64,000 nt of DNA, taken from assembly GCA_030324005.1 (NCBI GenBank), contig JARDVH010000025.1, forward strand, positions 83,545,693 to 83,609,692, given 5' to 3'. A program made the position numbers and the translations under genes. Under the pieces are notes generated by a model. That model did not search any database. It saw nothing but the letters and a program-made list of their open reading frames with translations, and was not told the origin of the DNA. Position 1 is the first letter of the stretch. Every line of letters starts with the position of its first letter. This stretch comes from Negaprion brevirostris. Lineage: Eukaryota. This document shows positions 2,361 to 64,000 of the stretch, piece after piece.

Positions 2361-2894
2361 GAGATGTGAGAAAACATTGAGCGATGTCTCATGTGAACCA
2401 AGTGTGAAAGAACATACCGCTGGAAATTGAACAAACCAGATGTGCTTCATTACAAATAGTCTGTTACTGGGTTGTTTATACTGAAGCAAATATTTAAAAT
2501 GGTAGTCTGTTGCATTCAAAGATTCAGCTCTTCAATAAGTTCAAAGGTAGATTGCAGATTTTAATTTTTTTTCTTGACATAATTATAAGATTTACTGGTA
2601 AGTAACAGATGGGCTTCATATATTTTAAAATTAAAGATCCTGGGCCATTTTTACTAAGATTGCACTGTTGGTGTAATTTGATACATGCTTGGGTCCAGTG
2701 AATGCACCTTCTTCAGAACAGCAAAGAGAGCTTTTTTATATTGTAATAATAATATCCAGGATCCTGAACAGTTGCAGAGAATTGCACTTAAAAAAAAAAG
2801 CAACTGTCAGAACTATTGAACATTGTTTAAACAAGTACTGTAAGTTGATGCTACTTTTTAAAAAAAAATTGAGATGTCTGCAAAAGTAAAGACA

Positions 2895-2994
2895 TGATGT
2901 GGACTTGCGGGCATTGGGCTGGGGTAAACACAGTAAGAAGTAAACTTCATCAAATAAATTGGTTGGACTTTAACCTGGTGTTGTGAGACTTCTT
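2895..2994. mobile_element. Short Penelope-like element remnant (family A) with 12-bp TSD
   Basis: Direct repeat aaagtaaagaca at 2883-2894 and 2995-3006. Inverted ends cagtaagaagt...acttctta. Shares ttggactttaacctggtgttgtgagacttc-type sequence with 28813-28999 and 60379-60498. Confidence 0.7.
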
Positions 2995-3782
2995 AAAGTA
3001 AAGACAACCAGTGCCTAAGATTTGAGTCATTCAGACAGATTTATAGAGGTGTTAGAGACTTTTTAGTTTTGATAGTGTCATTATAGTTAGGACTTGGTTC
3101 AGGTTGTACTATATAGTAGTAAATCTGAAGACTTGAGTCATTGAAATGTCGCAAGTAACAGAAATTCTTATTTTCTTTATCAATGAATTACATTGGATGC
3201 TTGTATTGCAATATTGTATTGCAGTTCCAGATTGTATTTTTGTTGGTTCATTTTAAATTGTATTAGTAATGAAAGGTGCTATTTTTGAAAGTATTCATCA
3301 TTTTTGCAGAATATGGATGCTTCAGAAGAATTGATTGGTTGAATTTACTGTACAAATATTTAACACAAAATTATCTAGTGCATTGTTCAAGTTAAAGTGC
3401 TGAATTTTCCTAACTTGGTCATCTGATTTAAGGTTGCAGCTTTATGACCTCTTGTCTTCACAGTATTCTTGTACAGCTACTCTCCGTCAATGTGGCAATT
3501 GCCTATTAAAATCAGAGATGCTCCACTGAAGTGATCTAATAATTTGGATTTTAGCACTAAATTATTTTCTTTATTTTACATTGCTTAAATCATATTATTA
3601 CATATTTCAAAAATGTGCAGCACACGAAACATTATAAATGTTGATCAAGTATTATCAGGAGTTGATTAAATATCTGAATTCTGTTTGCTGCTCTGAAGTG
3701 AATTGGGTGAGACAAGCATTGAGTGTGTGAGTATTCCCAGATCTTTCCTGGCTTTTTCTCTAACTTGCCTCACACCATGTCT

Positions 3783-14305: not shown

Positions 14306-14974
14306 AAACTGGATATCCTACCCATTCATCTTAATGGTCAGAAAATCAAAGCTAGTCCTACCAAAGAACAACTGCTTTTATATAGCACCTTTAACTCAGT
14401 CTTCAGAATTTCACTGTTTGATGAATTGTACCATCCTCCAGTATAGTTTAATGACAAGTAACTATGTTGCACTGATTAAGGGTGCGTCATCTCAGCAGGA
14501 GAAAGGCACTCCTTCCACCCCCTTAACACTAACAAAGCAAACTCTTCACCTTGAATGAAGTCTGGGACTCACCAGTTTGATCTAACATTGGAAATGTGGA
14601 ACATACATACCTTCTGAAGTTGATTGATGGTAGGTGTCCATAATCCAAGATGCAGCATGTTTAGCAAATTGGAAGTGTTTTATCTGTGCCCCGAACAAGT
14701 ATAGCTATGAAGTGATTAGTCCACATTGACGGAGAGTAGTCAAATCTTACTGATCTGGATTTTACTGAGATGTTCCTTCTCAAACCAAGGGGAGAGAAAC
14801 ATGGAACAGCGACTCCCTGAATTCATGTGGGATGGGGGGGGGTTACATCACAAGTTTGCTGGTTATTAGCATTTCAGCATCAAAAACCTATTATGCACAA
14901 AGCGTTCTAGTGTCACAATTATTCTAGCGGGGTCATGGTGTTGATGCACTGTTGCTCAACAAGTGTCCTTGCAT

Positions 14975-15110
14975 CAAAAACAGGAAATTCTAGGAACTTT
15001 AAGCAAGTCAGGCAACATCTGTATTGAGGACTGACAAGTTAACCTGACACGTATGGACACTTCATCAGAATAGGTTCCAGTATCACTCCAGCATCCACAG
15101 TATTTTGATT
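14975..15110. mobile_element. Penelope-like remnant (family B), degraded
   Basis: gcaagtcaggcaacatctgt and ccagcatccacagtattttg arms; cttcatcag is a hammerhead core CUGAUGAAG on the - strand without GAAA. Confidence 0.5.
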
Positions 15111-15617: not shown

Positions 15618-18600
15618 TTTAATTGTTTAAACAATTTAAATTTTTAATGAGTAACAGAAATCTCAAAATTGAGGAAATGAACATTCACTGCAGGTGGTGG
15701 AATGGGAGAAGGCCATTTCAGGTGAAGGAAATGGCTGACTGGTGAGCAATGCTAAAAGGAGGCTGTACTTTCAATATTCCATGTTCAGTGAGTTTGCAGA
15801 GGCTAGAGTAGAGATGCTACCAATCCACTCATGTCAGTCTCTAAACGCAGTAAGATCTTTTGAAGGAATCACAAAGCCATCTGGGGTGAAGGATTCTACA
15901 GAGAAGTGTTTTATCGAGGACTGAATTTAACTATTCCAATCTGTGTCTGAACACTTCCTTTTGTTATTGGCATTAGATATTAATGTTTGTACTGGAATTC
16001 AGTTGCACTCCATATTTTGTCTTGTATTTGGCTCTTGGAAATATAGCTAAAGATTGGGGAAAAAAATTAACTTTAGTAGTATGTAACATTAATTGTGGTT
16101 GGAAATATTGGTCTAATACTTAGCATTTGATGACTATATTGTGCTGTGTTCTATGAACAGTATATCTTAATTTATAAATAGTAAGTTAAATAGAAAGAAG
16201 TGTTACATTGCATGCAGTGTACATATTTGAAAAATCATGAAAGGAAGTGTGCACATCTTTAGTTTGCAAGTTCTATTTGAGAACGTATCCATTTGTCAAG
16301 GCTGTCCTGAATATAGCACTGCAGGTTTTGGATGGGTTAAATGATTTTTTGGGAAGATGCCAAGCATAGGATTGATTTTTGTAAGACCAATGTCATTGCT
16401 GCTAAACTGATATTTCTCATCCAGTGGAATACGGATAAACTGATTTGGAAAATTGAATTCTTTCATTGCTCAAATGCACTTTATGGTGAATTTATATTTT
16501 CTATGGAATTATCTTCAGGGTAACATCATGAACTCAAGAATAGCATGGTAGATTGCAATAAAGAAGAATGAAATGTAATAGAGTGAAAGTGAAATGGTGT
16601 GTTTTGTTATTACAGCAACTCATTGTACTGTGTTACTGCAGGTGAAATTACTCTTGTACATGTTATTCTTATATACCAGAGTACAATTATCCTGCTATGA
16701 ATTGTAGTTTGCTGTTATGTTGATATTACCATGTTTGATTTTTCTTATCACGTAAGTGATATATCTTTACAAGCTACAATGAATACCTTTTCCCTATATT
16801 CCTGGCATGGAAACCCACCTTTTACATTCTAGCAGCTCAGCACCAAGCATTGAGAGGCTGAACAAGTGACCTTTTCCCAAGATGCTGCCAGCTGCTGCTC
16901 TGCAACTGATATGGGAAGTATGAAAAATTAGCACTGCTTGTTTTCCAGTTTTTAACAGTTGCCATTGACCATATGGTAGCTCATTATTTGGAGAGAATAT
17001 AAAGAAAGTTAGATGAGTACAGGCTATTTGACTTATTGATACATGAGTATTTCTTCTTGATATCGAGTTGTATTTTGAATAACCTCAATGTTTTTGCCTT
17101 TATTGTTTTCGTATGTTCTGGGGGAGAAACTTTCATGTCAATCTGTTCCAAATTTATTTTTTGTTCATTTTCATGTCTTGGTTTTTGTTAAATCAAAATT
17201 TAAACTCAGTGTTTTCATTGCCACTGTAACCTCAATGCTACTGTGACTAAGATGATCTAACTCATCAAACTAAGGATCAAAATTGAAATCTTGCTTTCTA
17301 CACTTCAGTGTACTCCAACATATAGTACTACTTCGTGATTTCCCCCACCCCCAGACCACCAGGAGATTCCTATATTTACATTTTCAAAGTACTTTTGAAG
17401 TAAGTATTTAACAGAAGAAATACTGTACATGAAATTTGAGATTGAAGCTACTTTTAAATTGAGTCACTACAAATAGATTACAATGAACATGCTGTCAGGC
17501 TATAGAAGAGTAGAGCTTTGAAAAAATATGTACAGCGGTGGCAATCTTTGAGACAGGGCCTTTCATTTGTGTTTTGTGACTAATATTGCTATTATTAGTT
17601 ATGCAGGCAGGCAGAGTAACATCAAAAGACTGTTTAGTTATTGGTCAACATGTTTGAAGTTGGCAACCTAGCACTGATAATGGATTGACGAACTGAAAAG
17701 AAATAAATCAAAAATAATTCAGCTTGACCTTGATCTCCACTTTTACCAGATGCTTCATATACTTATCACAGCAAAGGTTGCAGCTAGTTTTATAACTGCA
17801 GCCCACAGGTATCCAAGTCAGTGAAATAATATTTCTTCTCCCAGGGCCTAGCATGCTGCAAGTAGGTCTTGAGGATCTTGAATTTTATATTTCCTTTTTT
17901 TGTATATTCCTGTATTGGTTGATTTGCCGGCACCTGCCTTGTCACTAACAGCAGTACTGTTGTTTGGGTCGTTAACAATGTTTTGGAAGTTAAAATATAA
18001 TTCCCTGGTTATGTGACAAAATTTCCAGGGGCTGTCCTCGCAGAGAAAGTTGCAAATCAGGGATTAATGCAATCTGTTCTTGTGTTTCCCTATTTGTTTG
18101 TAAGATTTCTTTCCTGACGGTTAGCCCACATTTGTTATAGCTGATTCTTACCTTTGGCAGACCCATCTACATTGAATGGAAGCCCTGAAAGTACTCGGGG
18201 TTTTTTTGAATGTGGCCCTTCATTGTTTTTGACCCAATACACAAAAACCAATACACATTATGAGTTGATGTACCACAAACCTAAAGTTTGACTGCTGCGG
18301 CCTCCATTCATTCTTTCTTTTGAGTTGATATTAATCATTGCAATCCCCTTCCCTACACACTTTTTTTTTATTCAGAGGGAAGGAGAGGGAGCTAACAGGA
18401 AATCACAGTGCATAACATGTTGATGGAATATTTAAAACTCTTGTACTCATTGTGAGAGCAACCTCTGGGGAAACCTGACNNNNNNNNNNNNNNNNNNNNN
18501 NNNNNNNNNNNNNNNNNNNNNNNNNNNNNNNCAACTGTTGAACCTTTATCTGCAGATTAGGGATACTGTCCTTTTATAAGTCTGTTATGGTTTCAAGTCC

Positions 18601-20530: not shown

Positions 20531-21682
20531 AATCTTGGTCCTTCACAGAGCTTCCCCAACTGTTTTCCTTTGAGCACAATCAGCGATCCAGAACAAATGC
20601 ACCAGTTTTGTGACGTGAATTTCTTGCTTGAATTTCCCCTCAAGCTCATTTGTCTAATGCCAGATATAAAATCTTGCATAAGCTGTGTTAATTGTGGAGC
20701 ATTTTAGAGCTTTTTTTAATAGAAATTTTAAAATTCCTTGATATATTTAAGAATGGTGACCTGGCATAGTTTTATCCATAAAACTGGGTTTATTATAATT
20801 ATTTAATTTATTAATTTATTATAATGGGTTTATTATAAGAAATATGCATTTTCAGTCTGTGCCTAGCCACTTACCTCTAACCCTGCAGTGTCTTGAGTGA
20901 TTGGCAATAACCAATTTGAGTAACAAAGGACTATTATAGTAATATTAACTGTATACTAGAGTGCTAGTACATGCTCCCATCTACTCTGGCACTCAGCCCC
21001 ATCCTACCCGGAGAAAGCCTGGCCTCAGCACAGATTTGTATGTTCCAGCAAGATTGACCAGTTAGGTCACATGACCCTCATCCTTCAAGGGACCATCTAC
21101 TATAAATTTGATACTTGAATAACTGAAAAGGACTGTACAAAACTATACAGAACCATTTCTTAGTTGCAATGATGTCCGGTAGCCATTTTCATGTTAAATT
21201 AAACAATATTTAAATTTTTTTTAGTGTCTTTACATTGGAGGAAAGAAAGCTTAATTTTAAGAGCCTCTTTGAAGGACAACGGGTGCAATTATTGAAAGCT
21301 CTCCAGTGGGGTCATTTAATCTGGGGCCATTACAAGATTTGTGGGTGAGGCCAACTTCCAGTGAGATGAATTTTAAATTTGCTCAAAGTTGCAGAAGCTC
21401 AGTTTGCACTGAATGCAATTTGCATTTGAAATTTATGACATTTTGCACTAAATTTACTCATTTTTGGGCAAGTTGTGCTGGAAGTACCAGTGCAGCCAAG
21501 TGGAAACTCCAGGCCCTTATGAAGAAATTGATTTTGGCAACAGAAGAGGTAATGACAAAGGAATACTTAATAAGAATGAAAATAGCATAAGAAAGTAAAA
21601 AAGGACAATGCTGAAAACGCTCAGCAGTTTTGGCAGCATCTGTGGAGATAAATTTCGTCAGACAGTTACAAACTGAAACATT

Positions 21683-22636
21683 GGGCTGGATTTTACCCTC
21701 CCTGTAGATCTATTTCAATGCACATGCTCGTAAACTCAATTGCCTTCTCACTGCCTTCCTACCATCCCTAACCTCATATTGCATTCGGCAGCAAAGATGT
21801 CAGGCAATATACCCACCCTTCTTGAAGCCATTTTAGGGACAACTTCAGCCTCTGTTGCTATTTTTCCGCAGCAAGGGAAGGTGCAAATAAGATGGAGGGC
21901 GTGGCAGCTTACCATGTGGGCTGGTGATAGGCAAGAGACACTCATTTGGGGAGGGTCCCTTTGCCCATAAATGATACCCCCGATCATATCCCACAGCCCT
22001 CCCTGGGATTTTCAAATTGGCCTTCACCCAACTTGCTGGGGTATGCCAGTCGCATCCATGAATAATCCCAAACTTTCATAGAATCCCTCCAGTGTAGAAG
22101 GAGGCCATCTGGCCCATTGAGTCTGCACTGACCACAATCCCGTCCAAGCCCTACTCCCACAACCCTACATATTTACCCTGCTAATCTGCCTGACACTAGG
22201 TCAACTTAGCATGGCCAATCAACCTAACCCCCACATCTTTGGACTGTGGAAGGAAATCAGAGCATCTGGAGAAGACCCATGCAGACATGGGGAGAATGTG
22301 GAAACTCCACACCGAGGCCGGAATGGAACCTGGGTCACTGGCACTATGAGACAGCAGTGCTAGCCACTATACTGCCCCATACAAAGTCCAAGCCCCTTTA
22401 CTTTGGAACTACCTGTAATCTCAGCAGTGGCCGCCGCTCAAACCCAGCGCTGCTAACTCTACAGAACTTTGTCAATCCTCCTGGTTATGGGACAGGAGTC
22501 TCACCCTGAAACAATTAAGGTTGTTAGCAGTGTAAAATGACTACTGGATAACTGGCTTTTGGGTGGGCAGGTTCACAACTAACTTTTTCAGTCCTGAGTG
22601 GTTTGAGGGAGGGAAACACCCTGTAAATTCCAGCCC
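21683..22636. mobile_element. PIF/Harbinger-like MITE
   Basis: TIRs gggctggattttac (21683-21696) and gtaaattccagccc (22623-22636), 13/14 match; 3-bp flanks ATT/TTT. Confidence 0.75.
22076..22378 (-). mobile_element. HE1 SINE (HER1-type tail) nested in the MITE
   Basis: tcatagaatccctccagtgtagaaggaggccat tail; V-domain ttagcatggccaatc...cccatgcagacatggggagaatg; tRNA-like head. Confidence 0.9.
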
Positions 22637-23039
22637 TTTAATTCTCTTTCGCTCTCCACAAATACTGCCTGACCTGCTGAGTATTTCTAGCATCTTTTGT
22701 TCTTATTTCAGATTTCCAGCATCTGCAGTATTTTGCTTTGTTTCTGTTAATATAAGAGATGAAGTGAAGGACCTGAAGGGATGAATGGAATTATAAGGTC
22801 AATGCTTAATAAAAATAGTTAAGATAAAAGGTTCAATATTAATTTCATATAGCTGGGTTGAAATGTTTAGAATGAATCGGTGGAATTCCAGAGGTAGGAC
22901 AGAGGAAGAAATAGTTTTACCAAATGAGAGAAACTTTGGATCTCAAGTTTCAATGTGGTTTGAGAGAAAATGTGACAGCATATTTTCCTATTCACTTTTC
23001 TCTCATGCACTCAACTCAGTTATTTGCCTCACCCACAGT

Positions 23040-28764: not shown

Positions 28765-29255
28765 CAGGCTATTCAGCCCATTGCGCCTGCTCCACCACTT
28801 AATATAATCATGATGTGGCGATTGCCAATGTTGGACTGAGATGGGCACAGTAGGAAGGCACACAACACCAGGTTGAAGTCCAACAGATTTATTTTGAATC
28901 ACAATGAAGGTGATTGAATTCCCGATGAAGGAGCGCTCCTAATTAAAAAATAAACCTGTTGGACTTTAATCTGATGTTATCAGACTTCCTACTGTGACCA
29001 TATAATCATGTCTGATCATCCACTTCAATGCTTTTTTTCCTCACACTATCCCAATATCTTTGATATTGGTGTTTAAAAATGTCAATCTTTTAACATACTC
29101 AATGACTGCATTTCCATAGTCCCCTGGGATAGAGAATGCCAAAGATTGACAACATTCTAACTTCAAAAAAAAATTCACCTCATCCATGTGTAAATGATTT
29201 GCCCCTTATTTTGAAATCATATCCTCGGATTTGAGACTCCTCAACTCGAGGAAAT
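28765..29255 (-). mobile_element. Older CR1 3' end, interrupted by a PLE
   Basis: ggctattcagcccattgcgcctgctccaccacttaatataatcatg|tctgatc; tgggatagagaatgccaaagattgac. Confidence 0.75.
28813..28999. mobile_element. Penelope-like fold-back element (family A) with 11-bp TSD
   Basis: TSD atataatcatg at 28802-28812 and 29000-29010. Arms cacagtaggaag...gtccaacagatttattt and aaataaacctgttggac...cttcctactgtg. Central CCGATGAAGGAGCGCTCC is a decayed hammerhead core plus stem II. Confidence 0.8.
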
Positions 29256-32118
29256 AAAGAACAAAGAGCAGTACAGGACAGGAACAGGCCTGTGTGCCAA
29301 TACAGATATCTCTCTAATCTAAAATTTTCTTGCCTCCACATGTCCATATCCTCTATCCCCTGCCTAGNNNNNNNNNNNNNNNNNNNNNNNNNNNNNNNNN
29401 NNNNNNNNNNNNNNNNNNNNNNNNNNNNNNNNNNNNNNNNNNNNNNNNNNNNNNNNNNNNNNNNNNNAAACCTCTGTCAGATCCCCCCTCATCCTCCAAT
29501 GCTCCAGTGAAAACAATCCAAGTTTGTTCAACCTTTCTTCATAGATTATATCCTTTAAACCAGACAACATCCAGGTAAATCTCTTCTGCACCCTTTCCAA
29601 TGCATCAATATCCTTCTGGTGATGTGGCGACCAGATTTGTACACAATACTCCAAATGCGGCCTAACCAAAATCTTATATAGTTGCAACATGATTTTCGAA
29701 TTCCTATACTCGATGCCCTGACTGACGAAGGCCAGCATGCCATATGCCACTTTGACCACTTTGTCCACCTGAATTGCCACCTTTAGGGAACTGTGGATCA
29801 GCATGCCTTGATCCCTCTGTACATTAATATTTCTAAGGGCTCTGCATTTACTGTATGCTTCTGCAGTCGACCTTCAAAATCGCATCATCTCCGATTTGTC
29901 CAGGTTAAATTCCATCTGCCATCTTTCGGCCCAGGTCTTCAGCTGATTTATATCCTGCTGTATCCTCTGATAATCCTCCTCACTACTGCTACTTCCTCAA
30001 CGTTCATATCATCTGCAAGTTTACCAATCAGACCACTTATATTTTCCTCCAAATCATTGAGATTATGAACATCGCTCATCAAACACCTTCAGTTAGAAAA
30101 GTACCCTTCCACTGCTACTCTATTTTCTATGCCCAAGCAAATTTTGTGCCCATCTCACCAACTCACCTCATATGACTTCACCTTCTGTATCAGCTTGCCA
30201 TGAGTTTAAAGTTTATTTATTAGTCACAATTAAGGCTTACATTAGCATTGCAATGAAGTTACTGTGAAATTCCATGAGGAGCTGTATCAAAGTCCACAAC
30301 ATCCATTTCTTGGCCCTGATCAATTTTTCTTATCATTTCCTCGAAGAACTCAATCAAGTTTGTGAGACATGACCACCTCCTCACAAAACCATGCTATCGC
30401 TAATAAGCCTATTCTCTTCCAGATGTGAGTACATCCTGTTCCTAAGAATCTTCTTAATAATTTCCCCCGCCATTTATGTAAAGCTCACAGGCCTGTAATT
30501 TCCTGGATTATTTCTTCAGCCCTTCTTTAAACAGAAGAAAAATGTTAGCTACTCGCCAATCCTCTGGTACCTCACCTGTGACTAAAGAGGATACAAAGAT
30601 TTTGGCCAAGGCCTCAGTAATTTCTCCCCTCGCCTCTCTCAGTATTCTGAGATACAGCCTATCTGGCCCTGGGGACTTGTCCACCTTAATGTTTTTCAAA
30701 ATCTCTAGTACCTCCTCCCTTTTTGTCTCAACATGTCCTAGAATGTCAACATCCTCCTTTCTATACTCGCCATCCATCGCATCCTTCTCCTTTGTGAATA
30801 CTGATGCAAAGACTCATTAAGGACCTCACCCACCTCATCTGGTTCCAGACACACATTCCCTATACTGTCCTTGAGTGGACCTACCCTTTCCTTAGCTGCT
30901 CTGTTCCTTATATAGGCATAAAAAGCCTTGTGATTCTCCTTAATCCTGCCTACCAAGTACATTTCATGGCCCCTTTTTGTCCCCCCAAGTCACTGTTTAA
31001 GGTCTTTCCTGCTATCTTTGTATTCCTCAAGAGCCTTATCTGTCCTCAATTTCCTGAAATTTATGTATGCCTCCTTTTTCACTTAGCTCACAATCTCTCT
31101 TGTCATCCAGGGTTCCCAAATCTTGCCATCTTTATACTTCATTTTTGAAGAGGCATACTTGTCCTGAATTGTTAACAACTGACTTAAAAGACTCCCAGAT
31201 GTCGAATGTAGATTTACCCTCAAACAGCCACCCCAGTCTACATCCCCTAGCTCTTACCTAATGCTGTCAGAGTTAGCGTTCCTCCAATTTCATACTTCCA
31301 CTCTGGGATTACTTCTTTCCTTTTCTACAAGCACCTTGGATTTGAATTGTAGAATTGTGATCACTATTCCCAAAATGGTTCTCCACTGAGACAGCAATCA
31401 CCTGCCTGGATTCGTTTCCCAGAACCAGGTCTAAGCTAGCCCCTTCCTGATGTTGGGGAAGTTAAAATTACCTGTCAGAACAACTCTGTTGTTTTTACAT
31501 CTTTCCATAATTTGCTGACATATCAGTATCTTCACTTCACTCTGGCTCCTGGGAGGTCTGTAGTACAACCCCAACAGTGTGATTTCATTGCTTCTAATCC
31601 TGAGTTCTGCCCATATGGCCTCACTGCATGATCCCACCAAGGCGTGCTCCCTCTATACAGCTGTGTCATTCTCCCTAATCAATAAAGCAAAACCCCCACC
31701 TCTTTTGTCACCTTCTGTCTTGTCTGAAGCATCTAAATTCTGGAATGCTAAGATGCCAGTCCTGCCCTTCTTTCATCCAAGTCTTTAATTGCCACATCAT
31801 CAAAGTTCCGCAGTAGTAACCCAAGCTTTACGTTTATCCGCCTCATCTGTCATACTCTTCTTTAAAACAAATACACCTTAGACGAGCTGTCCTGACATTT
31901 TTTGTACACTCTCTTAACCTTATTGGACCTATTCACTGAGTTCTCCACAATCTCTGTACTGTGGCCCTTTTTGATTTTTGTCTTTGTTTTCTCTGCCTTC
32001 CACTTTTCCTCTTCCTGCCTTTTGTTTTTGTCTCCATTTTACTTCCCTCTAACTTCCTGCATTAGTTCCCATTCTCCTACCATTAGTTTAAACCCTCCCC
32101 AACAGCACTAGCAAACAC
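29256..32118 (-). mobile_element. Long CR1/HER1 LINE (end of ORF1, APE endonuclease, RT, 3' tail), pseudogenised
   Basis: GVFASAVGEGLN* (ORF1 end); LLGLYYRPP...VVLTGNFNFPNI; KSPGPDRLYLRILRE...VPEDWRVAN; LYKILVRPHLEYCVQIWSP. Confidence 0.92.
30205..30271 (-). mobile_element. Tail-only 67-bp retroposed insertion with 7-bp TSD inside CR1
   Basis: TSD ccatgag at 30198-30204 and 30272-30278; same tail as the SINEs at 15187 and 48250. Confidence 0.8.
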
Positions 32119-32120
32119 AC

Positions 32121-33010
32121 CCTTATGGTATTCCAGGCGGGGTCTAACAAACATTCTATACAATTGAAGCAGGACTTTGCTACTCCNNNNNNNNNNNNNN
32201 NNNNNNNNNNNNNNNNNNNNNNNNNNNNNNNNNNNNNNNNNNNNNNNNNNNNNNNNNNNNNNNNNNNNNNNNNNNNNNNNNNNNNNNNNNNNNNNNNNNN
32301 NNNNNNNNNNNNNNNNNNNNNNNNNNNNNNNNNNNNNNNNNNNNNNNNNNNNNNNNNNNNNNNNNNNNNNNNNNNNNNNNNNNNNNNNNNNNNNNNNNNN
32401 NNNNNNNNNNNNNNNNNNNNNNNNNNNNNNNNNNNNNNNNNNNNNNNNNNNNNNNNNNNNNNNNNNNNNNNNNNNNNNNNNNNNNNNNNNNNNNNNNNNN
32501 NNNNNNNNNNNNNNNNNNNNNNNNNNNNNNNNNNNNNNNNNNNNNNNNNNNNNNNNNNNNNNNNTATCTAATTGCTTATCATTTACAGAATTCTCTACCC
32601 ATATGTTCCTCCTATCAAAGTGGATAACCTCACATTTCCCCACATCCCTGCCATGTTCTTGCCCACTTACTGAGTATGTCCAAATCCTCTTGAGGCCATT
32701 TTACATCTTTGTCACTTCACACGTTCCCACCTAGCTGTGTGTCATCAATGAACTTGGAAATATTACATTTTGGTCCCCACATCCAAATCATTGATATATA
32801 TTGTGAACAGCTGGGGTCCAAGTACTGATCGTTGCAGTTACCCACTAGTCATAGCCAGCCAATGTGAGAATGGCTTATTTTACTTTTGCCCTTTTTTTTT
32901 TGCTAACCAATCTCCTGTAGAGTCTTTCTCAAAAGTTTTCTGAAAATCCAAGTATGCTACATCCACCAACTCCACTTTATTAATTCTGTTGATCGCAATC
33001 TCAAATGACT
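32121..33010 (-). mobile_element. Further CR1 RT segment, gap-interrupted
   Basis: GKCEVIHF; SKVLLQLYRMFVRPRLEY; reverse-complement SVLGPQLFTIYIND...KFIDDT. Confidence 0.85.
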
Positions 33011-34624
33011 GAATAACAACTCTTGTCTTTCTTTATTTTCATTATTTTGTGAGATAGTGACAAATATACCCCCGGCGTAAACACATTATGCAGAAACATT
33101 TTGCTACAGTACCAAATTACTAGGGTGATATGCATTTATACACTCCCTACTTCAAATTCACATTAAGTGGTGTTATGTTCTTATGTTGCAGACTTTACCC
33201 ACCTAATGACTTATTAAGTTAAAATGTANNNNNNNNNNNNNATTTCAACTGTGGGTTGCTAAATTATTTGGTCTGCAGAGATAATCAATTATACAGCATC
33301 TCAAACAAAAACAAATGTTTATTGTAAGGTTAGCATGTTGCTCTGTATTTTTTTTCGTGGTGTGCTATGTCTAGAGGTAAGCTGTTTCATTTGCATTTTG
33401 AAAGTATACACACTGACAATCGACGTGAGACACTGCTGTGCTGGAATAGGAGGGGATTCCTTTGCAAAATAATTGGTCCGGTACAGATCTGGGGCAATTG
33501 GTGCAAGGATGCTGAATAATCCAATTCACTGCCGAAATTATTCAGTATAATGTAGCCCTTTCAAATTACAGGAAGTAAGTCATACTTCATTTTCACTATC
33601 TCATGGGCTAGCTTCAATTCGAACAGATATCTGCTGTCTGAAATTGGTGTCCTTTACTTCAGTAAAATTATATGTTCTGAAAATCTAGTTTTAAGCAAGA
33701 TACCTAATATTTCATGATCATGCATACCCTTTTAAATAGAATTGAGTGATTGCTGTTTGTTTGTTATAGCTATATAGGAGCGTGTGGCATGCTAATGAGT
33801 ATCCTCATGATCTGATACTCCTGGTGAGAATACTAATCATTTTATGAAGTGAATCTTAACATTGGTAAATATTTCGGAATGCTCCAGATAATACATAACA
33901 CAACAGTAAAGCAGGTTTTGTTTCTGCCCAAAGGAAGCAATCTATATCAGCGACTTGAAATTTTATATTAGGTTAGAATTGAGCTGGAAATCTCAGAATG
34001 AGAATATTGCTACTTGGCTCAAATAGATTAGTTATTTAAAAAGCATAGCGGAAACAAATTCACTGAGATTTTGGTTTAAAGAGCCTATCAGATGGTGTTT
34101 GGTGAACTAATTCAGTACAGGTTTGAAATTTCGTAAGTGAAACATTGATTTAGTAAGGAATCTGAGCAGAGACGTGTCAGCTGTTGGCTTTAAGCTGTTA
34201 ATACCATACATCTGTCCTGTGGGTTGGTGTCTTGTCACCTATTGCAGTGCTCAAATGTTTGGAGAAGTCTGAGAACTGAACAATCACAACTTAGAAGCTG
34301 TAGCTCCTAAAAACATTTTGGAGAAAGAGTGCTGCAAAATTTGTTCTTGTATTTAACCCTAACTGCCATTCGATTTCNNNNNNNNNNNNNAACACGTTTA
34401 TTTATTTTTAAGTGACGACTACTGTTCCTGTCTCCATGTGGGCTTCTTATGTTGTTTCATCCTAACTTTCTAGATATTCAAGGTGATATTGTTAAAACAG
34501 AATAAATCAGCCTTCATAGTTGCAAAGTGTAAACTAGAAATGATTCAATGTCAAAAAGCCACTTTCGTTAAAGTTCTGACTGCAACAACATTGCAATGTT
34601 TGGAGGCTGACATTTGCCCTACTC

Positions 34625-39100: not shown

Positions 39101-40778
39101 ATAGAAGTGTAAAACCTAAGTTGTACTGATGTGCATTACTGGCATTAGATATCCAGAGTAATTTTTAATTTGAATAACAGTAAATTAATATATTTCATGG
39201 CCGTAAAACAAAATTGTTGCCATGGTACTTGATACCTTACCGAGGTCTCAAAGTCGTCAGATCATTTAGGGACTCTGGCCTCTTATTGTTGGTGCAGTAA
39301 TAGCATATGAGGTGGTACATTAGTACACATTCAATGTGTCAGATTGTTTTTACGTAATTCAAACCCAAACGTCAGGAACTTAACTTCAGATCAAAGAAAC
39401 TTATGTAACAGGAAAGCAGCAAAGTAATTCAATACTTAAAGAAATAAATAGGGTAAGTTAACTGCTGTCAGGAATCTGAAGGTTGTGACAGACTTGATAG
39501 CTGGAATTCAGCATCTAAAATATTGTCTATTCAAAGTCATTTTGTACATTTCATCTCCAAGACTAATTTCACACTGGGCATAATGACAGAATTTTAATGG
39601 TGATTAGAGGAAGGATTTTCTCTGCTTACAAAGAGCCATTTTGAAACTTACGGAGACGATAAAGCCCAGATGTGAAATAGGAAAGAACTCTTGACATTGT
39701 ACATAATATATAACAGACCTCTGTCTTTATCGGCTGACAAAATACAGTTAGTAATCTCTGCAAAGCAATCAATAATCTCAATTACGCAAGTCATAAAACT
39801 TTGCTACCCCTATAATAGCAGACTTGTAACTATATTTTTACTCTCCATTCTTAAGCTGCAACAGGAAAGTCTATTTTCTGTGTAATTTTACCCACTATCT
39901 ATTGTGGCATTTATTTACGCATGAGCAATTTTTGCAATTGAATGCATAGCTTGAAATAGTAATCAGGAAAGCTACATTTAATCTTCCTGTGCATATATAT
40001 AATACTAAGCCAGGATTATTTCTTTGGGCCTCATTATTTCAGCAATATTAATTACATTTAAACTAATGGAAAAGTATTCACCCACATAGTGCATGAAGTC
40101 AATTCTTGAATAAGGATAATGTGGTACAACACGTGAAACACAAACTTGCATGCTTGCTGATGTTTACAATGCTGAAGAAAATTTCCAGACTCAATTGTTG
40201 TCACATTGTGTTAATTTAATCCAAGATAGTTCTTTTAGTTCAACATGACTGGCCTGCCTGTGAGCAGACTCCCTGGAAAACTACCCTCCATCTGGATGAA
40301 TGTAGCGAGAATCATAGGGAACACATATGATCATCTTTACATACTTTATTAGCACACCATCACTGAAGCATCTGACTAATCCTCTTTCCTCTATCTTCAA
40401 ACTGAGTACTATCTGGTTTCAATCCAACTAAGATATAAATTGTCAAGTTTTATTTGATCAAAATCTGCATTTCTCAACTCTTAGATGGGCAACTATACCG
40501 GGGATTCTGAACTGTCTACCAAACTACATTGCAGAACAAGCAAATATACTATAAATGGCCTCCAAGCATGGTTGTATTTGAATGGAATGACTTGAACTAT
40601 CAATGAATAACCATCAAGGAAACAATATCTATCCTCTGAAGTACTTGCATCATTTTGAGATGTGCATATTTTCAACTTGCAATAATGCTAACTGAATCAG
40701 TTATAACCAAAGAGAATCTAATATGTGTTATACCACTGGTAAAAATTCGTTCAAACGGCTTGTGTGATAACTAAACAT

Positions 40779-41275
40779 GGGCGGCACGGTAACACAGTGG
40801 TTAGCACTGCTGCTTCACAGCTCCAGGGACCTGGGTTCGATTCCCGGCTCGGGTCACTGNNNNNNNNNNNNNNNNNNNNNNNNNNNNNNNNNNNNNNNNN
40901 NNNNNNNNNNNNNNNNNNNNNNNNNNNNNNNNNNNNNNNNNNNNNNNNNNNNNNNNNNNCACTTCTGCTTCACAGCTCCAGGGACCTGTGTTCGATTCCC
41001 GGCTCGGGTCACTGTCTGTGTGGAGTCTGCACATTCTCCTGGTGTCTGCGTGGGTTTCCTCCAGGCGCTCCAGTTTCATTCCACAGTCCAAAGATGTGCG
41101 GACTAGGTTGATTGGCCATGCTAAAATGCCCCTTAGTGTCCTGAGATGCGTAGGTTAGAGTGATTAGCAGGTAAAGTATGTAGGGATATGGGGGTAGGGC
41201 CTGGGTGGGATTGTGGTCAGTGCAGACTCGATGGACCGAAGGGCCTCTTTCTGCACTGTAGGGATCTATGATTCT
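40779..41275 (+). mobile_element. HE1 SINE, full length (head duplicated across a gap)
   Basis: Head gggcggcacggtaacacagtggttagcac...gggttcgattccc; V-domain; HER1-type tail; direct repeat taaacatggg at 40772-40781 and 41276-41285. Confidence 0.92.
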
Positions 41276-42423: not shown

Positions 42424-42493
42424 ATTCTGATGCGTTAAACTATAGCACCAAGCTGTGTAACAAACAAGCCGCTGTCTTCAAAGCTGCTACCAG
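42424..42493 (+). CDS. Internal coding exon of the host gene (xSDALNYSTKLCNKQAAVFKAATR)
   Basis: tttatatttctag| acceptor and CAG|gtaggt donor. 70 nt with a single open frame (phase 1 to phase 2), compatible with the 58893 exon. Confidence 0.75.
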
Positions 42494-43429
42494 GTAGGTG
42501 AAGTGTTCGAGCTAATTAGTATGAACTACATCAGAGCATGTTAGTTTCCCTTTGCGTTACAGCTGTTGGCCACAGTGAATGTTGCATGCATCTACTTCAT
42601 GATTTATAGAATACTTCATTGCCTGAACTGCCAGATGCCTATCTGGAATGCTTTGTATATAATTACAATCTCAACACCAATCCTGTGCTCTAGGATGTGC
42701 GCTGCACTTTAACGACAATGCTCTCGCCACCTGCTCAACCATTTGTGAGCCTCAGCAGTTATCTACAACTATTGTCTAGGAACGGATGGGTCAGTAAATG
42801 CTTATGTCTAACCCAAAAAAGAGAGGGAAAAGAACAGCTTCTCTTTTGTTCCAAAGCTTCCCTGTCTCCAAATGGTGCTGATTTGATTTGCGTAGCCCCC
42901 AATCTGTGATACACAATCAGCGTTTTTGTTTTAGAAATGCCTCTGTTTGTCCGCAAGCTTGAACAGCCTGTTTCATTTTTTTTTAAAGGCAACTTGATGT
43001 TAGGTTACATTGACTAACAATTTGCAATTTCTGAGACAAAAGACTGGAAGACTTTATGATGAGAATTTCCAAAAGATCTGTATGCTCAAGCAATGCGTAT
43101 TATTCTGTATTATACGGTTACACTAACTTAATGCTAGTGTGACTGCAGGCAGCAATGCTTCTGCTGCTGATGTAAGAAACATGCAGTTACCCAACGTTTT
43201 AAAATTGAACAATGCCTCTAGCCTTCTGTAGTGCTAGAACCCATATGTTGTATGACAGAATGCAGTATTCATTTTATTGAAGAGCTGTCTTTTAATTTAA
43301 TTCAGTTTAAGGAAAGACAAAACCATCATCTGAGGATTATTTTGAAATTCGGATTGCTTCTCTATTATTACAAGTATATTGCCACTGAAATGTTGAAAAG
43401 CTGTGTTACTATTTTAGAAAGTTAATATA

Positions 43430-44689: not shown

Positions 44690-47508
44690 GTGTCAGATGG
44701 CCAATTAGTGGACGTCCAAGAGGAAAGCAGCCACGGGGCAAGGGTTCAGCTGAATGGAAAATTAGAAGGTAGGAGTACAGGTTAGTGACGAGGCTGATGG
44801 TTTCTAGAAAATAAAAGGAAGAAACAGAATGTATCGGTCATATTATCTGAGAAATCATATAGAAGTAGGGAAATTTGATAATAGAACAAATTTAAAAGCT
44901 TTGTATCTGAATGCAAGAAGCATTTGGAATAAAATTGAGTTAACAGTGCGCACAGGAAAAAAGAGGTATGATTTGGTGGTGCTTACTGAGATGTGGTTGC
45001 AGAGAAACCAGGTTTGAGAACTGAATATCCAAGGGTACGCTGTATTTTGGAAGGGTTGGCAAAAAGGGAAAGGAGGTGGTGTAACTTTGTTCGTGAAGGA
45101 AGAGAGAAGTGCTGTAATGAGAAATAATTTAGAGACTGGAGATCAAGATGTAGAATCAGTTTGAGTAGAAGGAAAAGAAGCCGCTGGTGGGAGTAATCTA
45201 TAGATCACATAACAGTAACAGTTGGGCGCAGTATAAATCAGGAAATATTGGGAGCTTGTAAAAAATGTACAGCAATAATCATGGATAATTTTAATATGCA
45301 CATAGACTGGATTAATCAAATTGCCAAGGGTAACCTCAAGGGGGAGGGGAGTTCATTGAATGTATTGGAGATTGTTTCTTGGAGCAATATGTTGTGAACC
45401 AACCAAGGAGCAGAGTATTCTGAATTTGGTGTTGAGGGTGGGTTAACTAATGATCTCATAGTTAAGAATCCTCTGGGGAAAAGTGATCATAGCATGCTAG
45501 AATTCAAAGCTCAGTTTGAGGGAGAGAAACTGGAGTCCGACATTAGGGTCCTGGAGTTAAAGGTAATTACATGAGCATGAGATGAAACTTGGCCTTTGTG
45601 GTCTGGGCAGGAAGGCTAAAAGGTAGAACAATTGATGAGCAGTGACAGTTGTTTAATGAGTATTCCTCTCAACTAAATTATATTCCAGAGAGAGAGAACA
45701 ATTGTGAGAGGGGAAAAAACATCCATGGCTAAGTAAGGAAGTTAGGAAACTTTTAAAGATCATCAAAGGGTTATTAAAAAAGTAATAAAAAGAATGAAGA
45801 TAAACTATGAAAAAAAATCTAATGCAAAGTGCAAAAAAGGATAGCAAAAGCTTCTATGACTCTTGGAACACAGAAATGGTTGAGACACTAAGTCAATATA
45901 TAGCCTCAGTTTTCACAGTGGAGCAAACTGGTACCATCCCGATAGTAACAGCTAATGCAGAGGTAATAGAAAGGAAGGAACTTAGAACACTCATCATCAA
46001 TAGGGAAAAAGTACTGAGCAAACCAGTGGGATTGAAGACAGACAAGTCCCCGGGACCTGATGACTTATATCCTAGGGTATTAAAAAAAGTGGCAGCAGAG
46101 ATAGTGGATCTATTGGTTATATTATTCCAAAATTCCCTGGATGTGGGGAAAGTTATAGTTGATTCGAAAAATGATAATATAATGCCCTTATTCAAAAAAG
46201 GAGGAAACTAGACAAGTTTAACATCTGTTGTTGGGAAATTGTTCAAATCAATTATTAACAGAGTAATAACAGGAAAGTCAAAATGCAATCCATTCGAGTC
46301 AGCATAGTTTTATGAAGGGTAAATCATGTTTGACTAATTTGCTGGTGTTCTTCGAAGATGTATCAAGCAAAGCGGATAATGGGCATCCTGCAGATGTAGT
46401 ATATCTGGACTTTAAGAAAGCACTTGATAAGGTGTCACCCTAAAGATTAATACACAAGGTAAGATCACATGGGGTTAGGAATAATTTATTAGCTTGGATA
46501 GAGAATTGGCTAACGAACAAAAAGCAGGGAATTTGGATAAATGGTTCCTAATCAGGTTGGCAATGTGTAATTGGTGGGGTGGGGCAAGGTTCAGTCCCTG
46601 GGTTCCAACTATTTATAATCTATATTNNNNNNNNNNNNNNNNNNNNNNNNNNNNNNNNNNNNNNNNNNNNNNNNNNNNNNNNNNNNNNNNNNNNNNNNNN
46701 NNNNNNNNNNNNNNNNNNNNNNNNNNNNNNNNNNNNNNNNNNNNNNNNNNNNNNNNNNNNNNNNNNNNNNNNNNNNNNNNNNNNNNNNNNNNNNNNNNNN
46801 NNNNNNNNNNNNNNNNNNNNNNNNNNNNNNNNNNNNNNNNNNNNNNNNNNNNNNNNNNNNNNNNNNNNNNNNNNNNNNNNNNNNNNNNNNNNNNNNNNNN
46901 NNNNNNNNNNNNNNNNNNNNNNNNNNNNNNNNNNNNNNNNNNNNNNNNNNNNNNNNNNNNNNNNNNNNNNNNNNNNNNNNNTGGCCCATTCGTCCAGCCT
47001 ATCTAGATCCTTCTGCAGACTCTCCACACCCTCCGTGCAATTTGCCGTTCCACCAATCACTTGAGAGATGTCGTTACTTTGGAGGTAGTTCAAAGGAGGT
47101 TCACTAGGTTGATTCCAGAGATGAGGTTGATATATAAGATGAAAGGTATTGACAAAGTAGTTGCAGAGATGCTTCCTGTTGTTGGGCAATCTGTAACAAG
47201 AAATCATAGTTTTAGGATAAGGGGCAGCAAATTTAAAACAGAAATGAGGAAAAATTGCTTCTCTCAAAGGGTAGTGAATTTGCAGAAATCACCCAATGTC
47301 CCAGCAAACACCACACCCAGAATGTGGTGGTTTCTGCGACATTGTGAATTTAAGGAGTAGAGAGACAGATTTTTAATTAGTAATGGGTTGAAAGATTATG
47401 AAAGAAAGGTAGGAAAGTGGAGATGGGGCGAGATGAGATTAGCTATGATCACATTAAATGGCGGAGCAGGCTTGAGGGGCTGAACTACATACTTAGTTCT
47501 TACGTTAT
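44690..47508 (+). mobile_element. Long CR1 LINE (EN + RT + 3' tail), pseudogenised, gap inside; - strand CR1 piece at 46982-47056
   Basis: LKALYLNARSIWNK, YDLVVLTEMWLQ, DKSPGPDDLYPRVLKKVAAEIVD, KGKSCLTNLL, LEVVQRRFTRLIPEM. Confidence 0.92.
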
Positions 47509-58247: not shown

Positions 58248-58892
58248 AATAATGTAGTAAGTAATTCTAATTTGTGTGCCTTTGTAACCTGTTTTACCTG
58301 AATAAAGGATAACATATGCCAAGCAGTAAGTGGAAAAACAGGGAAACCAAGTGTGGGTATGAAGAATGGTGGTATGAGAATAGGAGGAGAGTATTGGGTT
58401 GATTGTGAGGCTCCTAACTTCATTTGACATGGCACAGAACAGTTATGAGGTTAATAAATAGGTCATTGCTTTTTTCTCAGAGAAACAATGGCTTAGGAGA
58501 GATTGAGACAAGTAATTTTAGCAATTGTAATGGGACTTGTGTTGTTTCTTTCTCATCTAGTTTCAAATAAGCCATATCTTGAGAAACAAAGGAAAGGTAT
58601 GCCACAATACTGAATGTAGTCTTCTCCACTAAATGATAAAGGGCCAATAGAATTCTGAAGCAAATATAGAAAGAACTACAATGTTTTATATTCAAGAAGC
58701 CAAAATAACAACCTTTTCTTGCCGAAACCAACCCGCTAATAAATTACAAAGCACAGAAACAGCAGCTCTAGAATCATTTATGCCAGGATTTTAAGTGAAG
58801 GATTGATCCTGAACTCTACCCTGGTTCTGTTGGAGAAAATCTGAGTGCAGCAATCATTGACAATTGTTTGTACTAAATTTACATTGTTGCAG

Positions 58893-59172
58893 ATTTTTCA
58901 AGTATCAACATAAAAAACATCCAGGCTGCATGGTGGAGTGTTCTCAGGAACAGAGCACAGGACTTTTATCCTCTGGGTGCATTTTGAGAGCAGCTTCTTA
59001 TCTTCCTGAAGCAGCTGGCTTTGTAAATATGGAGGAAGTAACAGTTCTGGATGCAGTGACCCTCATTGGTCGCACCTGTCATGACCACTGCAGCTTATCC
59101 AGACAAGTCAGAGGAGAACTGTCCTCATTGCCTTTGCTTCACCAGACAGTCTGCACAGAATTGTGTTGTTAG
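58893..59172 (+). CDS. Terminal coding exon of the host gene (FFKYQHKKHPGC...LLHQTVCTELCC*)
   Basis: Branch-point-like tactaaat at 58871 and acceptor ttgttgcag|. Phase 2 completes AG+A (Arg) from the 42424 exon. 92 stop-free codons in non-repetitive, GC-richer sequence, then TAG. Confidence 0.75.
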
Positions 59173-60378
59173 CTGCACAATGCAATGCACGTGGCACAAA
59201 TATTAGGGTTGGATTTTCCTGAAGATGGGTTCATGTCACCAACTTTTCACTATTGTGGGAACCATGTTGCATTCAATCATGCAGGTAAAATCAATTAAGT
59301 GATCGCTGCTATTTTTATCAGTTTTATTCTGGGAGGGAGACTTTTTTACTAGGTAGCAAAATTCCTTCCAAGTGGAAAGTGTCAGATGTGGCATCACTGG
59401 TTTTTCTGAAGAGCAATGGTTTGTCCTCTTGTAAAATCACCTTTTTCTATCTGGGTAATTATAATCCTTTCATTGTGGTATTTCATAGTGTCCCCATCAT
59501 TAAAAGGAAGAAACACTTAGTGGAGAATGGCTCTTGAGGAAGAAATGGCTATTACCTGTATCCATGTCAGCTAATCTCACTGAGAAATCCCCTGACACAG
59601 AGGAGGTGAAAATCGAGAGGTTCTTCATCCTCAAATGTTTTCAGAAGGCAAAGGAGAAAAGTGTCTCAACTGCAAAAAAAAGCATTTTAAAAAATCAGCT
59701 ACTGCTGCAGTGAATGGGGCTTGATATCTGGGAGGGCCTCCAAGAGGTGAAAAACAAAGCAGATCTGGCACTTTGCTTCAGAAAACTCAAAACATTTTCC
59801 AATATAGAGTTTGCTTCCTAGAGCAGCACGAGACATGCTGCTTCTTCCAAAATGTATGCACAGGGTGCTTTGTGATCAGCTTCCTAAAGGAAAAGGAATG
59901 CTCACTAATTAAGAATCAACAAATCATTTTTTGCCTAGCTGCATGAGAGTTTACCGGCCAAGTTGTATGCTATTCACAAATGGGATCAGCACAGACCTAC
60001 CTAATTGTACAATAGTATGCTTCTGGCTTGCAGTCTGTCGGAATCCATGACGAAAGGCATCATCACCCTCATTTACAAGTGGAAAAAGAGTGAGAGAAAA
60101 TCCAAAATTGGCAGTCAGCTTCACTCTTAAAGTGGATAATAAAATTCTGTTCAGGGTCATTGCAGTTTGGGTCAAGTCTGCTCTGGAGTTGGTATCCACC
60201 ATGATCAAACATGCACTGTGTCTGATAGATCTCAAAGATTTAGTCACCTGTGTGCAGGACAGGGCNNNNNNNNNNNNNNNNNNNNNNNNNNNNNNNNNNN
60301 NNNNNNNNNNNNNNNNNNNNNNNNNNNNNNNNNNNNNNNNNNNNNNNNNNNNNNNNNNNNNNNNNNNNNNNNNNNNNN

Positions 60379-60498
60379 TGCTCTGTCTGAGGCCAGAACT
60401 CTCCATTCACCTGACGAAGGGGCTAACCCGAAAGCTAGTGAGTTTACTATCAAATGAATCGGTTGGACTTAAACCTGGTTTTGTCAGACTTTTTACTG
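60379..60498 (+). mobile_element. Penelope-like family A pseudo-LTR segment (5' part in gap)
   Basis: ggttggacttaaacctggttttgtcagactttttactg shared with 2961-2994 and 28955-28996. Confidence 0.75.
60406..60442 (+). ncRNA. Minimal type I hammerhead ribozyme motif (PLE-type)
   Basis: UUCAC-CUGACGA-A-GGG-GCUAA-CCC-GAA-AGCU-A/GUGAG. Stem I is UUCAC:GUGAG, stem II is GGG:CCC, and palindromic AGCU replaces stem III. Predicted cut after A60437. Confidence 0.7.
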
Positions 60499-61522
60499 GT
60501 TGCATTTGCCATGGAACACTCCAGTCAAGTGGATAATGCTGTACCATCCCTGATGGAAAGTGTTTTCAGAAAAATATTTTCAACCACAAGCTCTACATGC
60601 ATGTCCTCAAAGCTCTATAGGGAAATGAGATTGTCAATCCTGTCAAATAATTCTCTAAGCAGACTGTTGAAATCTTATAGAATGCTGCAACTTTCAACCA
60701 ATCACTAAGACGTTGATGAGAAAGGCCCAGCTGTGTATTCACGTTCCTACGTAGAACAAGGGCACATTAAGGGACTGATCATGTAATGTCTTGATATTAT
60801 CAACCATTTGTGTGGGCATACAGGTGGTCTATCCTAACAGCCTGTTAAAATCTTCCCTTTAGAGCTCTGTTTGTTTGTGGTCTGCAAGCTCATCCTTTAA
60901 AAAAAATACCACAGGCCCTCCCTTTCAGATTCTTCCTACAAACCTGGAGTATCATTCCACACTGCGTTTGAGATGTCTGTGGTGGTAGAGACTGTCAACC
61001 ACCACCTTCTGGAATGTGGCCTTTGCAAAAATGCAATGAATTTTGCCCAGGTTCTTCCTGAGCAGCACAGTAGGCTGTTCCAGGGATGCACACTGGGATG
61101 AATATCAACTGGTGCTGGAGGACCATTAGATCACTGGAAGACGCTGTTTGGTCTGTTAGAAAACTACTGCTCTGTTCATGCAAAAGCTGTCGATAACCAA
61201 GGGTTTCAGAATGATGTACTCAAGGTCCATGACTGTGTGCTGAGGAATGCACTAAGGCTTGTGACAGCTACTGCAGAGGCTCAGTGGAGAAAGACCACTG
61301 TCTAACATCCACCTGCCATAGTATACCAAGGGATTGGAAATCGTGAAAAGCCACTCAGGTTGTATGCAATGGAGAATGTTTAACATGAAATTTAAATGTA
61401 TATTCTGGATACAACCTTCAACGGCAAATGTAATGAGACACCTTATGTACTATGTTGAAAGAAACTGACTGTATTGCATTTTATGTTAAGTTTGAACTAT
61501 GATGTTATGTACTTTTGCAAAT

Positions 61523-62096: not shown

Positions 62097-63044
62097 AAGA
62101 AATGTCTTCAGCACACCTATTCCTCGCTTGGTGCTGCTTTCAAATATACATTTTGAAAAATCACCACAAATCCTTTAGATCTCTCAAATTAGTTGGTTAC
62201 TGTCTTCAAGCAATCATCTTTGAGCATTGTTTTCCCCTGGTTGGATTCTCCATTCTCCTCTCATTTTTCCCAGGTTTGATGTCCCTTTTCTTCACTGTGA
62301 ATGACTTGAGCCACCTTCCTATATGCAAGGAGTGATTGATCCCTTTTTGCTGTATTTCTGTCCTTAAATTTGGATTTCTCAAGTGTGCAAAATTGTAAAA
62401 GCTGATATGCAACAACCATTGCTTTTAAAATAATTCTTGAGGATTTTCGAAGTACAAAACTGCAGTTGAGGAGCCTCGTCCACTGGCTGCACAATTCAGG
62501 AAGTCATGGATGCACTGCCTGCAAATCTATAACCATTGATTTCTTTGGAAAAATAACTGTGGACTGTAAGTCAGCACCATGTGTTTGGAAATTCCACCTT
62601 TTGGGTTCAGAGGAGTCAACTGTAGTGAGAGATCAGAATACCTGTGGATCCTCTGCCATGATGTCCTGGAGTTTTTGTCAGTATATTTTGTGAGTAGATA
62701 CTGTCCTATAGATGGCACTATTTGACTGTTCTAGTTGTGTAACTTGCTATAATACAATGCCACAAGTAAAAGCAAATTACTGCAGATGCTGGAATCTGAA
62801 ACCAAAAAAGAAAACACTGGAAAATCTCAGCAGGTCTAGCAGCATCTGTAAGGAGAGAAAAGAGCTGACGTTGACTTTGTCAAAGCTAACAAAGGGTCAT
62901 CTGGACTCAAGTAATGCCACATAAGAAATGCCCTCGACACACCTATTCCTTGCTTGGTGCTGCTTTCAGGTATACATTTTGAAAAATCACGACAAATCCT
63001 TTAAATGTCTCAAATTAGTTGTTTACTGTCTTCAAGCAATCATC
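62097..63044 (+). repeat. 122-bp local direct duplication (62097-62218 and 62923-63044)
   Basis: Ungapped manual alignment gives 11 mismatches in 122 (about 91% identity). Confidence 0.9.
62770..62908. mobile_element. Penelope-like family B fragment
   Basis: aagcaaattactgcagatgctggaatctgaaacc...ctcagcaggtctagcagcatctgt...gagctgacgtt, then an inverted stub ctttgtcaaagctaacaaagggtcatctggactc. Confidence 0.75.
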
Positions 63045-64000
63045 ATCACGTATGCCACAAGTAATTTCATGTATGAACAAATGTCTGCGCTGTTGGCCTT
63101 TGACTGCGACAGACAAAGTTAATTGAGTAACTTTGCTATGCTGCAAAATAACTGCAAACTGTCCACTTTCATCCATTTATTCAGCTGTATGTGCATTCTC
63201 AAATGAACTGCATTTGTAAAAATGTGACTTTTGTAGCCAAGCACGTTCATCATTGGTGATTATATTAACCCCTGTTTGGCATCAAGAATGACATTTAATT
63301 TAGATTTTCTTAAAATATTTAGGAAAGAAGCATGTAATTATTGGTGTATTGTCTCAAAGTGGTTTTCATACCAATGTATTTTCAGTAATGAAAGCTTAAG
63401 AAAATTAACTATATAGTAGAAAATGTTCTAAAATGTCAGATTTTGTTTTGGGTATCAGTAGTTGTATCCCAAGAAGGCCCATTATTTTGCAGAGCACTTT
63501 TAATCCTGCTATGTTTCAGAATTCAGTAAGAGAAGTTATTTGATGCGGCAAAATTGGTAAAAATCATGGGACAGTTTGGGGGAAAATGACTTTAAGAAGG
63601 GGAAACTGCAAACAATACTTGTCCTGCAGCCCAATCAGTCATTCCTTTTATCTGTGCTTCAATTTTAAACAGAAAGCATTCATGTGTTCTGCCTCTCCCA
63701 CAGGAAGTTCCCAGCTGGTCACTGTAACAGCTGTTCTTGCAGTAAGCAAGCAAAGCTCAGTACATCATTTTAGAATTTGAATGTAAGTGTCAGTATATGC
63801 TCAGTGCGAACAGCTGTTACAGTCACCTAATGGAAACTTTTCACTCCGGTGGGCTGAAAGACACCTAGTCCTGATTTTAAAAATAATGAATACTGAAACT
63901 GGTGGGAAAAAATTGTTCCACAGGGTTAAAATTGCAGCTCTGTAGTGTACAGTGTTGCTTTTTCTTTGCTTATTTTGAATTAGTGAATGATGCAGCACAA

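Follow-up and report, generated by a model that had tools for sequence, protein, structure and literature searches.

A minimal type I hammerhead motif, likely inert at this site, within a very high-copy and likely Penelope-like repeat

The motif and its surroundings

Our study revealed a minimal type I hammerhead motif on the forward strand of the window, the 64-kb stretch of DNA that was analysed (Table 1). A preliminary description, made from the sequence alone, had named the core nucleotides, an extra A, a 3-bp stem II and an AGCU palindrome, and all of these were present in the sequence where it had placed them. It had also described a stem I of 5 bp; the pairing is present, but its actual length is 6 bp, which is among the longest of 12 motifs compared. 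The G10.1-C11.1 pair is formed by G60419 and C60429, and the A at H17 is in keeping with the NUH rule. Scans of both strands, using the core pattern and a relaxed hammerhead descriptor, confirmed that this is the sole intact core in the readable sequence of the window, as had been claimed, and the relaxed descriptor matched in 1 of 200 doublet-preserving resampled windows. An Rfam scan returned no hammerhead match up to an E value of 5, which is to be expected of a motif that lacks stem III.

Table 1. Positions of the hammerhead motif, its carrier repeat and neighbouring features in the window
Feature	Position	Strand	Basis or remark
Minimal type I hammerhead motif	60405-60443	+	Sequence, stem pairing probabilities, fit to published consensus
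Stem I	60405-60410 / 60438-60443		6 bp, of which one is a U-G wobble
Core CUGACGA	60411-60417	+	
Extra A between positions 9 and 10.1	60418		
Stem II, GGG/CCC	60419-60421 / 60427-60429		3 bp, 5-nt loop
GAA	60430-60432		
Palindrome AGCU replacing stem III	60433-60436		No helix III loop
H17 = A	60437		Predicted cut after 60437
Visible part of high-copy repeat fragment carrying the motif, likely PLE end repeat	60379-60498	+	Depth spike; loose ends at 60379 and 60496-60498
N run, 113 nt	60266-60378	.	5' portion of this repeat likely located here; family contigs reach beyond 60379 on the upstream side
Upstream part of older, fragmented LINE-like ORF2 remnant	59800 (approximate)-60265	+	Frame pieces, raised depth, joints
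Downstream part of older, fragmented LINE-like ORF2 remnant	60499-61305	+	Ends at TAA 61303-61305; frame pieces, raised depth
Candidate open frame, proposed last host exon, 91 aa	58894-59172	+	Translation
TAG, proposed host stop	59170-59172	+	1234 nt before motif
ATTAAA hexamer	59499-59504	+	Between proposed stop and motif
AATAAA hexamer	60138-60143	+	267 nt upstream of motif, in LINE-like remnant
Second repeat family, nearest other hammerhead-like remnant	62765-62912	+	Core decayed at 62884-62912; unusable partner
Inverted arrangement of motif-family tail	28847-29001		Broken hammerhead core at about 28920-28940
Inverted arrangement of motif-family tail	2890-2995		

The motif is carried by a 120-nt repeat fragment that sits within an older LINE-like remnant. 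This was indicated by contigs of four public runs placed upon 58400-61400 (5459, 6500, 10814 and 18444 contigs per run), which came from organism A, in which most of the sampled words were found, and its relatives B and C, with two of the runs representing one sample. In the upstream part of the remnant, depth was elevated at 60016-60116 and contigs were joined to other loci; in the downstream part, several bins had elevated depth and joints occurred at 61018>61095 and 61260>61373. This pattern, common to both sides, points to an older dispersed repeat around the motif. In a protein atlas, the first match to the LINE-like frames scored 0.95 and was unnamed, and the nearest family cluster was RVT_1 (0.86, 41 % of members), while Pfam, homologue and PDB searches of the frame pieces gave no support. 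The remnant is putatively of the Tx1/L1 kind, and it apparently carries a large internal deletion. The N run between the upstream part and the repeat ends 26 nt before the motif and could conceal a second core; a single-copy contig of organism C extends 268 nt beyond the left end of the run, whose true length may therefore exceed 113 nt. The window as a whole contains 22 N runs totalling 2787 nt, many of exactly 100, which lie mostly within repeats and resemble those of a short-read assembly.

The preliminary description had placed the motif 1.24 kb past the stop codon of a host gene on the same strand. The distance from the TAG and the strand are correct, but the reading of this TAG as the end of a host gene is without homology support. 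Pfam had no match for the 91-aa frame or for nine candidate exon pieces, homologue searches for the proposed gene found none, and atlas matches to the 91-aa frame were all <0.9, with low recognition. Thirty matches of the proposed last exon within a representative set were rejected as chance, being short, spread over multiple stretches and 28-44 % identical, and a nucleoporin identity, suggested by one weak PDB match (E 0.035), was likewise rejected. A rough splice-site scan, too strict for a gene model, scored the acceptor at 58893 poorly. Contigs across the proposed last exon differ by 2.6-3.0 % in the relatives, similar to the repeat-derived flank, and one contig of B has an extra A at 58911, near the contig end, which would be a frameshift if real. 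Further exon-like pieces with splice signals were picked out by eye on the forward strand at the approximate positions 12401-12556, 16425-16485, 17750-17808, 33770-33823, 42424-42494, 58561-58596 and 63704-63741. Read from the letters, these pieces suggest a putative long forward-strand gene whose last exon is uncertain, and the candidate exon at 63704-63741 could place the motif in an intron.

The repeat family that carries the motif

Summed contig depth was about 3.4e5-1.35e6 at 60319-60520, compared to 4.5-11 in the single-copy flanks; summed depth is not equal to copy number, and it is the contrast with the flanks that marks a very high-copy repeat in A, B and C. The loose ends that delimit the visible fragment were seen in four runs of three organisms. 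Contigs of the repeat family extend upstream of 60379 into the N gap and downstream beyond 60498, where this copy ends and other family members go further. Loose ends at 60419 derive from family variants that retain the core with compensatory alterations on both sides of stem II, one of them with a GAAA loop, and those at 60429 reflect one extra C in stem II (34-51 contigs per run), which gives a stem II of 4 bp. The extra-C contigs indicate that stem II of the copy described here is likely weakened, being one pair short of a common family form, and the 5 of 19 repeat pieces that align without gaps may be members that share the short stem II. The letters of stem I and of the palindrome are common to thousands of copies.

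These variants bear directly upon the possibility that the motif is a chance match without hammerhead ancestry. The folding energy of the motif is unremarkable by itself (z-score -1.56) and, together with the silent Rfam scan, could be read in favour of chance. However, the resampled windows matched in a single case, the motif agrees letter for letter with the published consensus (PMC4209133), and the family variants preserve the core despite changes in both strands of stem II. The family contig evidence refutes a chance match, the probability of which we consider negligible.

One contig of C links the end of the repeat to its start, which indicates that tandem copies of the family exist somewhere, and opposite-strand joints among family contigs were also seen. 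Tandem and inverted end repeats, a trait of Penelope-like elements (PLEs), are therefore present in this family. No RT/GIY-YIG ORF was seen beside the motif in the readable sequence, and the fragment itself is without an ORF. As no such ORF is linked to the family, its designation as Penelope-like, drawn from sequence features, is likely rather than proven.

Within the window, the tail of the fragment (60449-60498) is 79-87 % identical to three other copies, which brings the motif-family tails to four, two of them forming one of the inverted pairs in Table 1. A second family comprises four copies that are 69-79 % alike (the remnant nearest to the motif, 22644-22739, 21591-21652 and 14970-15028). 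The preliminary description had counted at least six PLE remnants; the count holds, with four copies in each family, while the name Penelope-like was drawn from the hammerhead motif. Other repeats were also observed in the window. Long decayed LINE-like stretches, which are presumably CR1-like, lie on opposite strands at 29230-32570 (-) and 44800-47480 (+), and short interspersed repeats occur at, for example, 40770-41270 and 22076-22370.

The same hammerhead core was found at 11 metagenome loci in other organisms. The search pattern behind these loci fixed most of the core and basal stem letters. Their pairing counts, with 25 of 500 shuffles reaching the same level for the 5 rows that have the motif, therefore cannot serve as independent evidence. 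A link to Penelope ORFs was not found among the 11 loci, and the core pattern was unmatched in viral contigs. Two marine metagenome contigs (L005:397-434 and L008:397-434) carry a minimal hammerhead with a 5-bp stem II, and their stem I start, palindrome and H17 = A are the same as in the window motif. A third contig (L009, ~346-376, reverse strand) has a minimal hammerhead followed by a tail that resembles the tail of the window family.

Age, folding and expected activity

Single-copy right-flank contigs of B and C start at 60472 and 60469, respectively, and thus include the final 27-30 nt of the repeat. This shared 3' junction indicates that the insertion is older than the split of A, B and C; it is this junction that documents the sharing, while in B and C paralogues swamp the letters of the orthologous core. 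The flanks of the three organisms differ by 1.9-3.3 %. Drift relative to sister copies amounted to 134 differences in 1562 nt (8.6 %), with gaps in 14 of 19 pieces, a figure based upon 19 repeat pieces of about 41,700 and filtered at 88 % likeness. At position 60456 this copy has a private G, compared to an A in about 99.8 % of the depth. With 4.3-8.6 % drift, 13-17 core positions would all remain unaltered with a probability of 0.22-0.56, so an intact core would arise by chance in around a quarter to a half of such copies and selection is not needed to explain it. Being common to three organisms and ~9 % off its sister copies, the insertion is neither very young nor special. The preliminary description had allowed for a young neutral insertion; our data support a neutral insertion, but 'young' is wrong given the common 3' junction and the drift.

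It had also suggested a role in a host 3' UTR, for which we found no support, as the proposed last exon is without a homologue and has diverged like the flank, the poly(A) hexamers precede the motif and the surroundings are LINE-like. Co-option by the host as a 3'-end device would mean that the motif cuts nascent RNA 267 nt after the AATAAA or trims a long 3' UTR, in the manner of the Clec2 or the intronic amniote hammerheads. The motif does lie on the same strand as the proposed gene, 1234 nt past its TAG, and the insertion has been retained in three organisms, but strand agreement is a coin toss and presence in close relatives equals the expectation of neutral inheritance. Domesticated hammerheads are known (PMC6155905) and, according to a preprint, exon-overlapping Xenopus retrozymes tend toward 3' UTRs (bioRxiv 10.64898/2026.07.22.740005). 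However, the known domesticated cases are self-sufficient in their fold, whereas the window motif lacks stem III. Furthermore, the proposed last exon has no Pfam, homologue or atlas support, its contigs are as diverged in the relatives as the repeat flank and include the 1-nt insertion in B, the ATTAAA at 59499 comes earlier, and the motif could be intronic in view of the candidate exon at 63704-63741. Taken together, the chance of host co-option appears to be very slim indeed.

In a 61-nt context, stem I had a pairing probability of 0.77-0.86, which fell to 0.14-0.40 in longer contexts and to 0.14-0.30 once the context was at least 120 nt. As the motif is without its own stem III, the active fold needs two copies that pair via AGCU and swap stem I arms. 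The dimer fold was estimated at -19.3 kcal/mol, compared to -22.7 kcal/mol for two monomers, in a nearest-neighbour model that ignores the hammerhead tertiary core; by this energy estimate the dimer is disfavoured by 3.4 kcal/mol, with the concentration cost still excluded. According to PMC4209133, minimal hammerhead (min-HHR) monomers are inactive and dimers cut in vitro, but weakly, with activity low even when the two copies are tethered. The Anolis PLE hammerhead was cleaved only when the protein of the element was present, and RNA reads ending at the site were not observed (PMC11167929).

Our preferred reading, to which we assign a probability of roughly 0.85, is that the motif is a minimal hammerhead within a 120-nt piece of what is likely a PLE end repeat, present in very high copy, and that it is likely inert here. 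Going by PMC11167929, the element RNA would have been reverse-transcribed from near this end, and the resulting copy may have been inserted into the older LINE-like remnant before A, B and C split. On the basis of the literature, the active fold would form only when the AGCU palindrome and the stem I arms pair with a second copy, probably aided by the element's own protein. A transcript crossing the site would be cut very rarely, given that there is no visible intact partner in cis, no ORF and a short stem II. Survival of the core would be attributable to the few-percent drift of the copy and not to upkeep by the host. The complete core, the 6-bp stem I and the unread N gap near the motif are points against inertness.

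An alternative is occasional accidental activity. Read-through or intronic RNA would pair with one of the family transcripts, or with a further core inside the gap, and cleavage at 60437 would follow, with no gain for the host. In favour of this, the core is complete, thousands of family copies have the same stem I and palindrome letters, tandem and inverted arrangements of the family exist (including that at 28847-29001), and dimers cut in vitro in the published work. However, a second copy would be held by just four palindromic pairs plus short stem I arms, the nearest-neighbour model disfavours the dimer by the margin given above, and activity is low even for tethered dimers (PMC4209133). 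We therefore regard such activity as unlikely. A broader proposal is that dispersed single minimal hammerheads in host pre-mRNA or read-through RNA are cut in trans upon expression of Penelope-family RNA and its protein, so that transposon activity trims or terminates transcripts; at the window site, the motif would then act as a transposon-switched aid to termination 267 nt after the AATAAA. If true, transposon expression would act directly on host RNAs, as such cores are very numerous in genomes of this kind. At this locus the evidence for cutting in trans is limited to the intact core, the significance of the motif is small as it stands, and we consider the proposal highly unlikely.

Comparison with known systems

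The preliminary description had assigned the motif to the minimal type I hammerheads of PLEs, with an architecture suited to dimers, and this is supported: the motif fits the published consensus for the min-HHRs in the pLTRs of metazoan PLEs, which are of type I, as here (Cervera and De la Pena 2014, PMC4209133). These min-HHRs share with 60405-60443 the sequence CUGANGA, an extra base before G10.1, the G10.1-C11.1 pair, GAAA, UH, a 4-nt palindrome in place of helix III and a short helix I. They occur genome-wide mostly as single copies from truncated elements, and likewise here. Helix II of min-HHRs is usually long (about 5-8 bp), and the 11 vertebrate rows in Fig. S3 have a stem II of 5-7 bp, compared to 3 bp in the window motif, with a 3-bp case given for C. 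briggsae (PMC4209133). Published PLE min-HHRs are linked to RT/GIY-YIG elements, whereas no such ORF is linked to the window motif. The word 'shark' is absent from the searched portion of supplementary file 2 of PMC4209133, and no paper dedicated to the PLE hammerheads of sharks emerged from a literature search.

In the Anolis Poseidon element PAc, the hammerhead is located close to the genomic 'tail' end of insertions and is followed by a short tail (PMC11167929). The window copy is arranged likewise, with 61 nt separating the cut site from the end of the copy. The ORF of PAc starts inside stem II and its protein assists cleavage, whereas the window motif has no following ORF. Non-LTR retrozymes share with the window repeat a non-coding nature, a type I hammerhead and many dispersed monomers (PMC7229834; bioRxiv 10.64898/2026.07.22.740005), and have been reported in one chondrichthyan in the latter; the supplements of this preprint may list the family described here. 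Active retrozymes form tandem arrays in which two or more cores are intact, whereas the readable sequence of the window has a single visible core.

Domesticated hammerheads, such as those in the Clec2 3' UTR and in introns of RECK, CTCL and DTNB, lie near or in a host transcription unit, a putative one in the case of the window motif (PMC6155905). However, they are conserved over deep time and lie outside current high-copy repeats, whereas the window copy shows no sign of selection, and they fold self-sufficiently with a stem III that the window motif, in keeping with its lack of an Rfam match, does not have. In summary, this class of motif has been in print since 2014, and 60405-60443 is one further copy from a family that is thousands strong.
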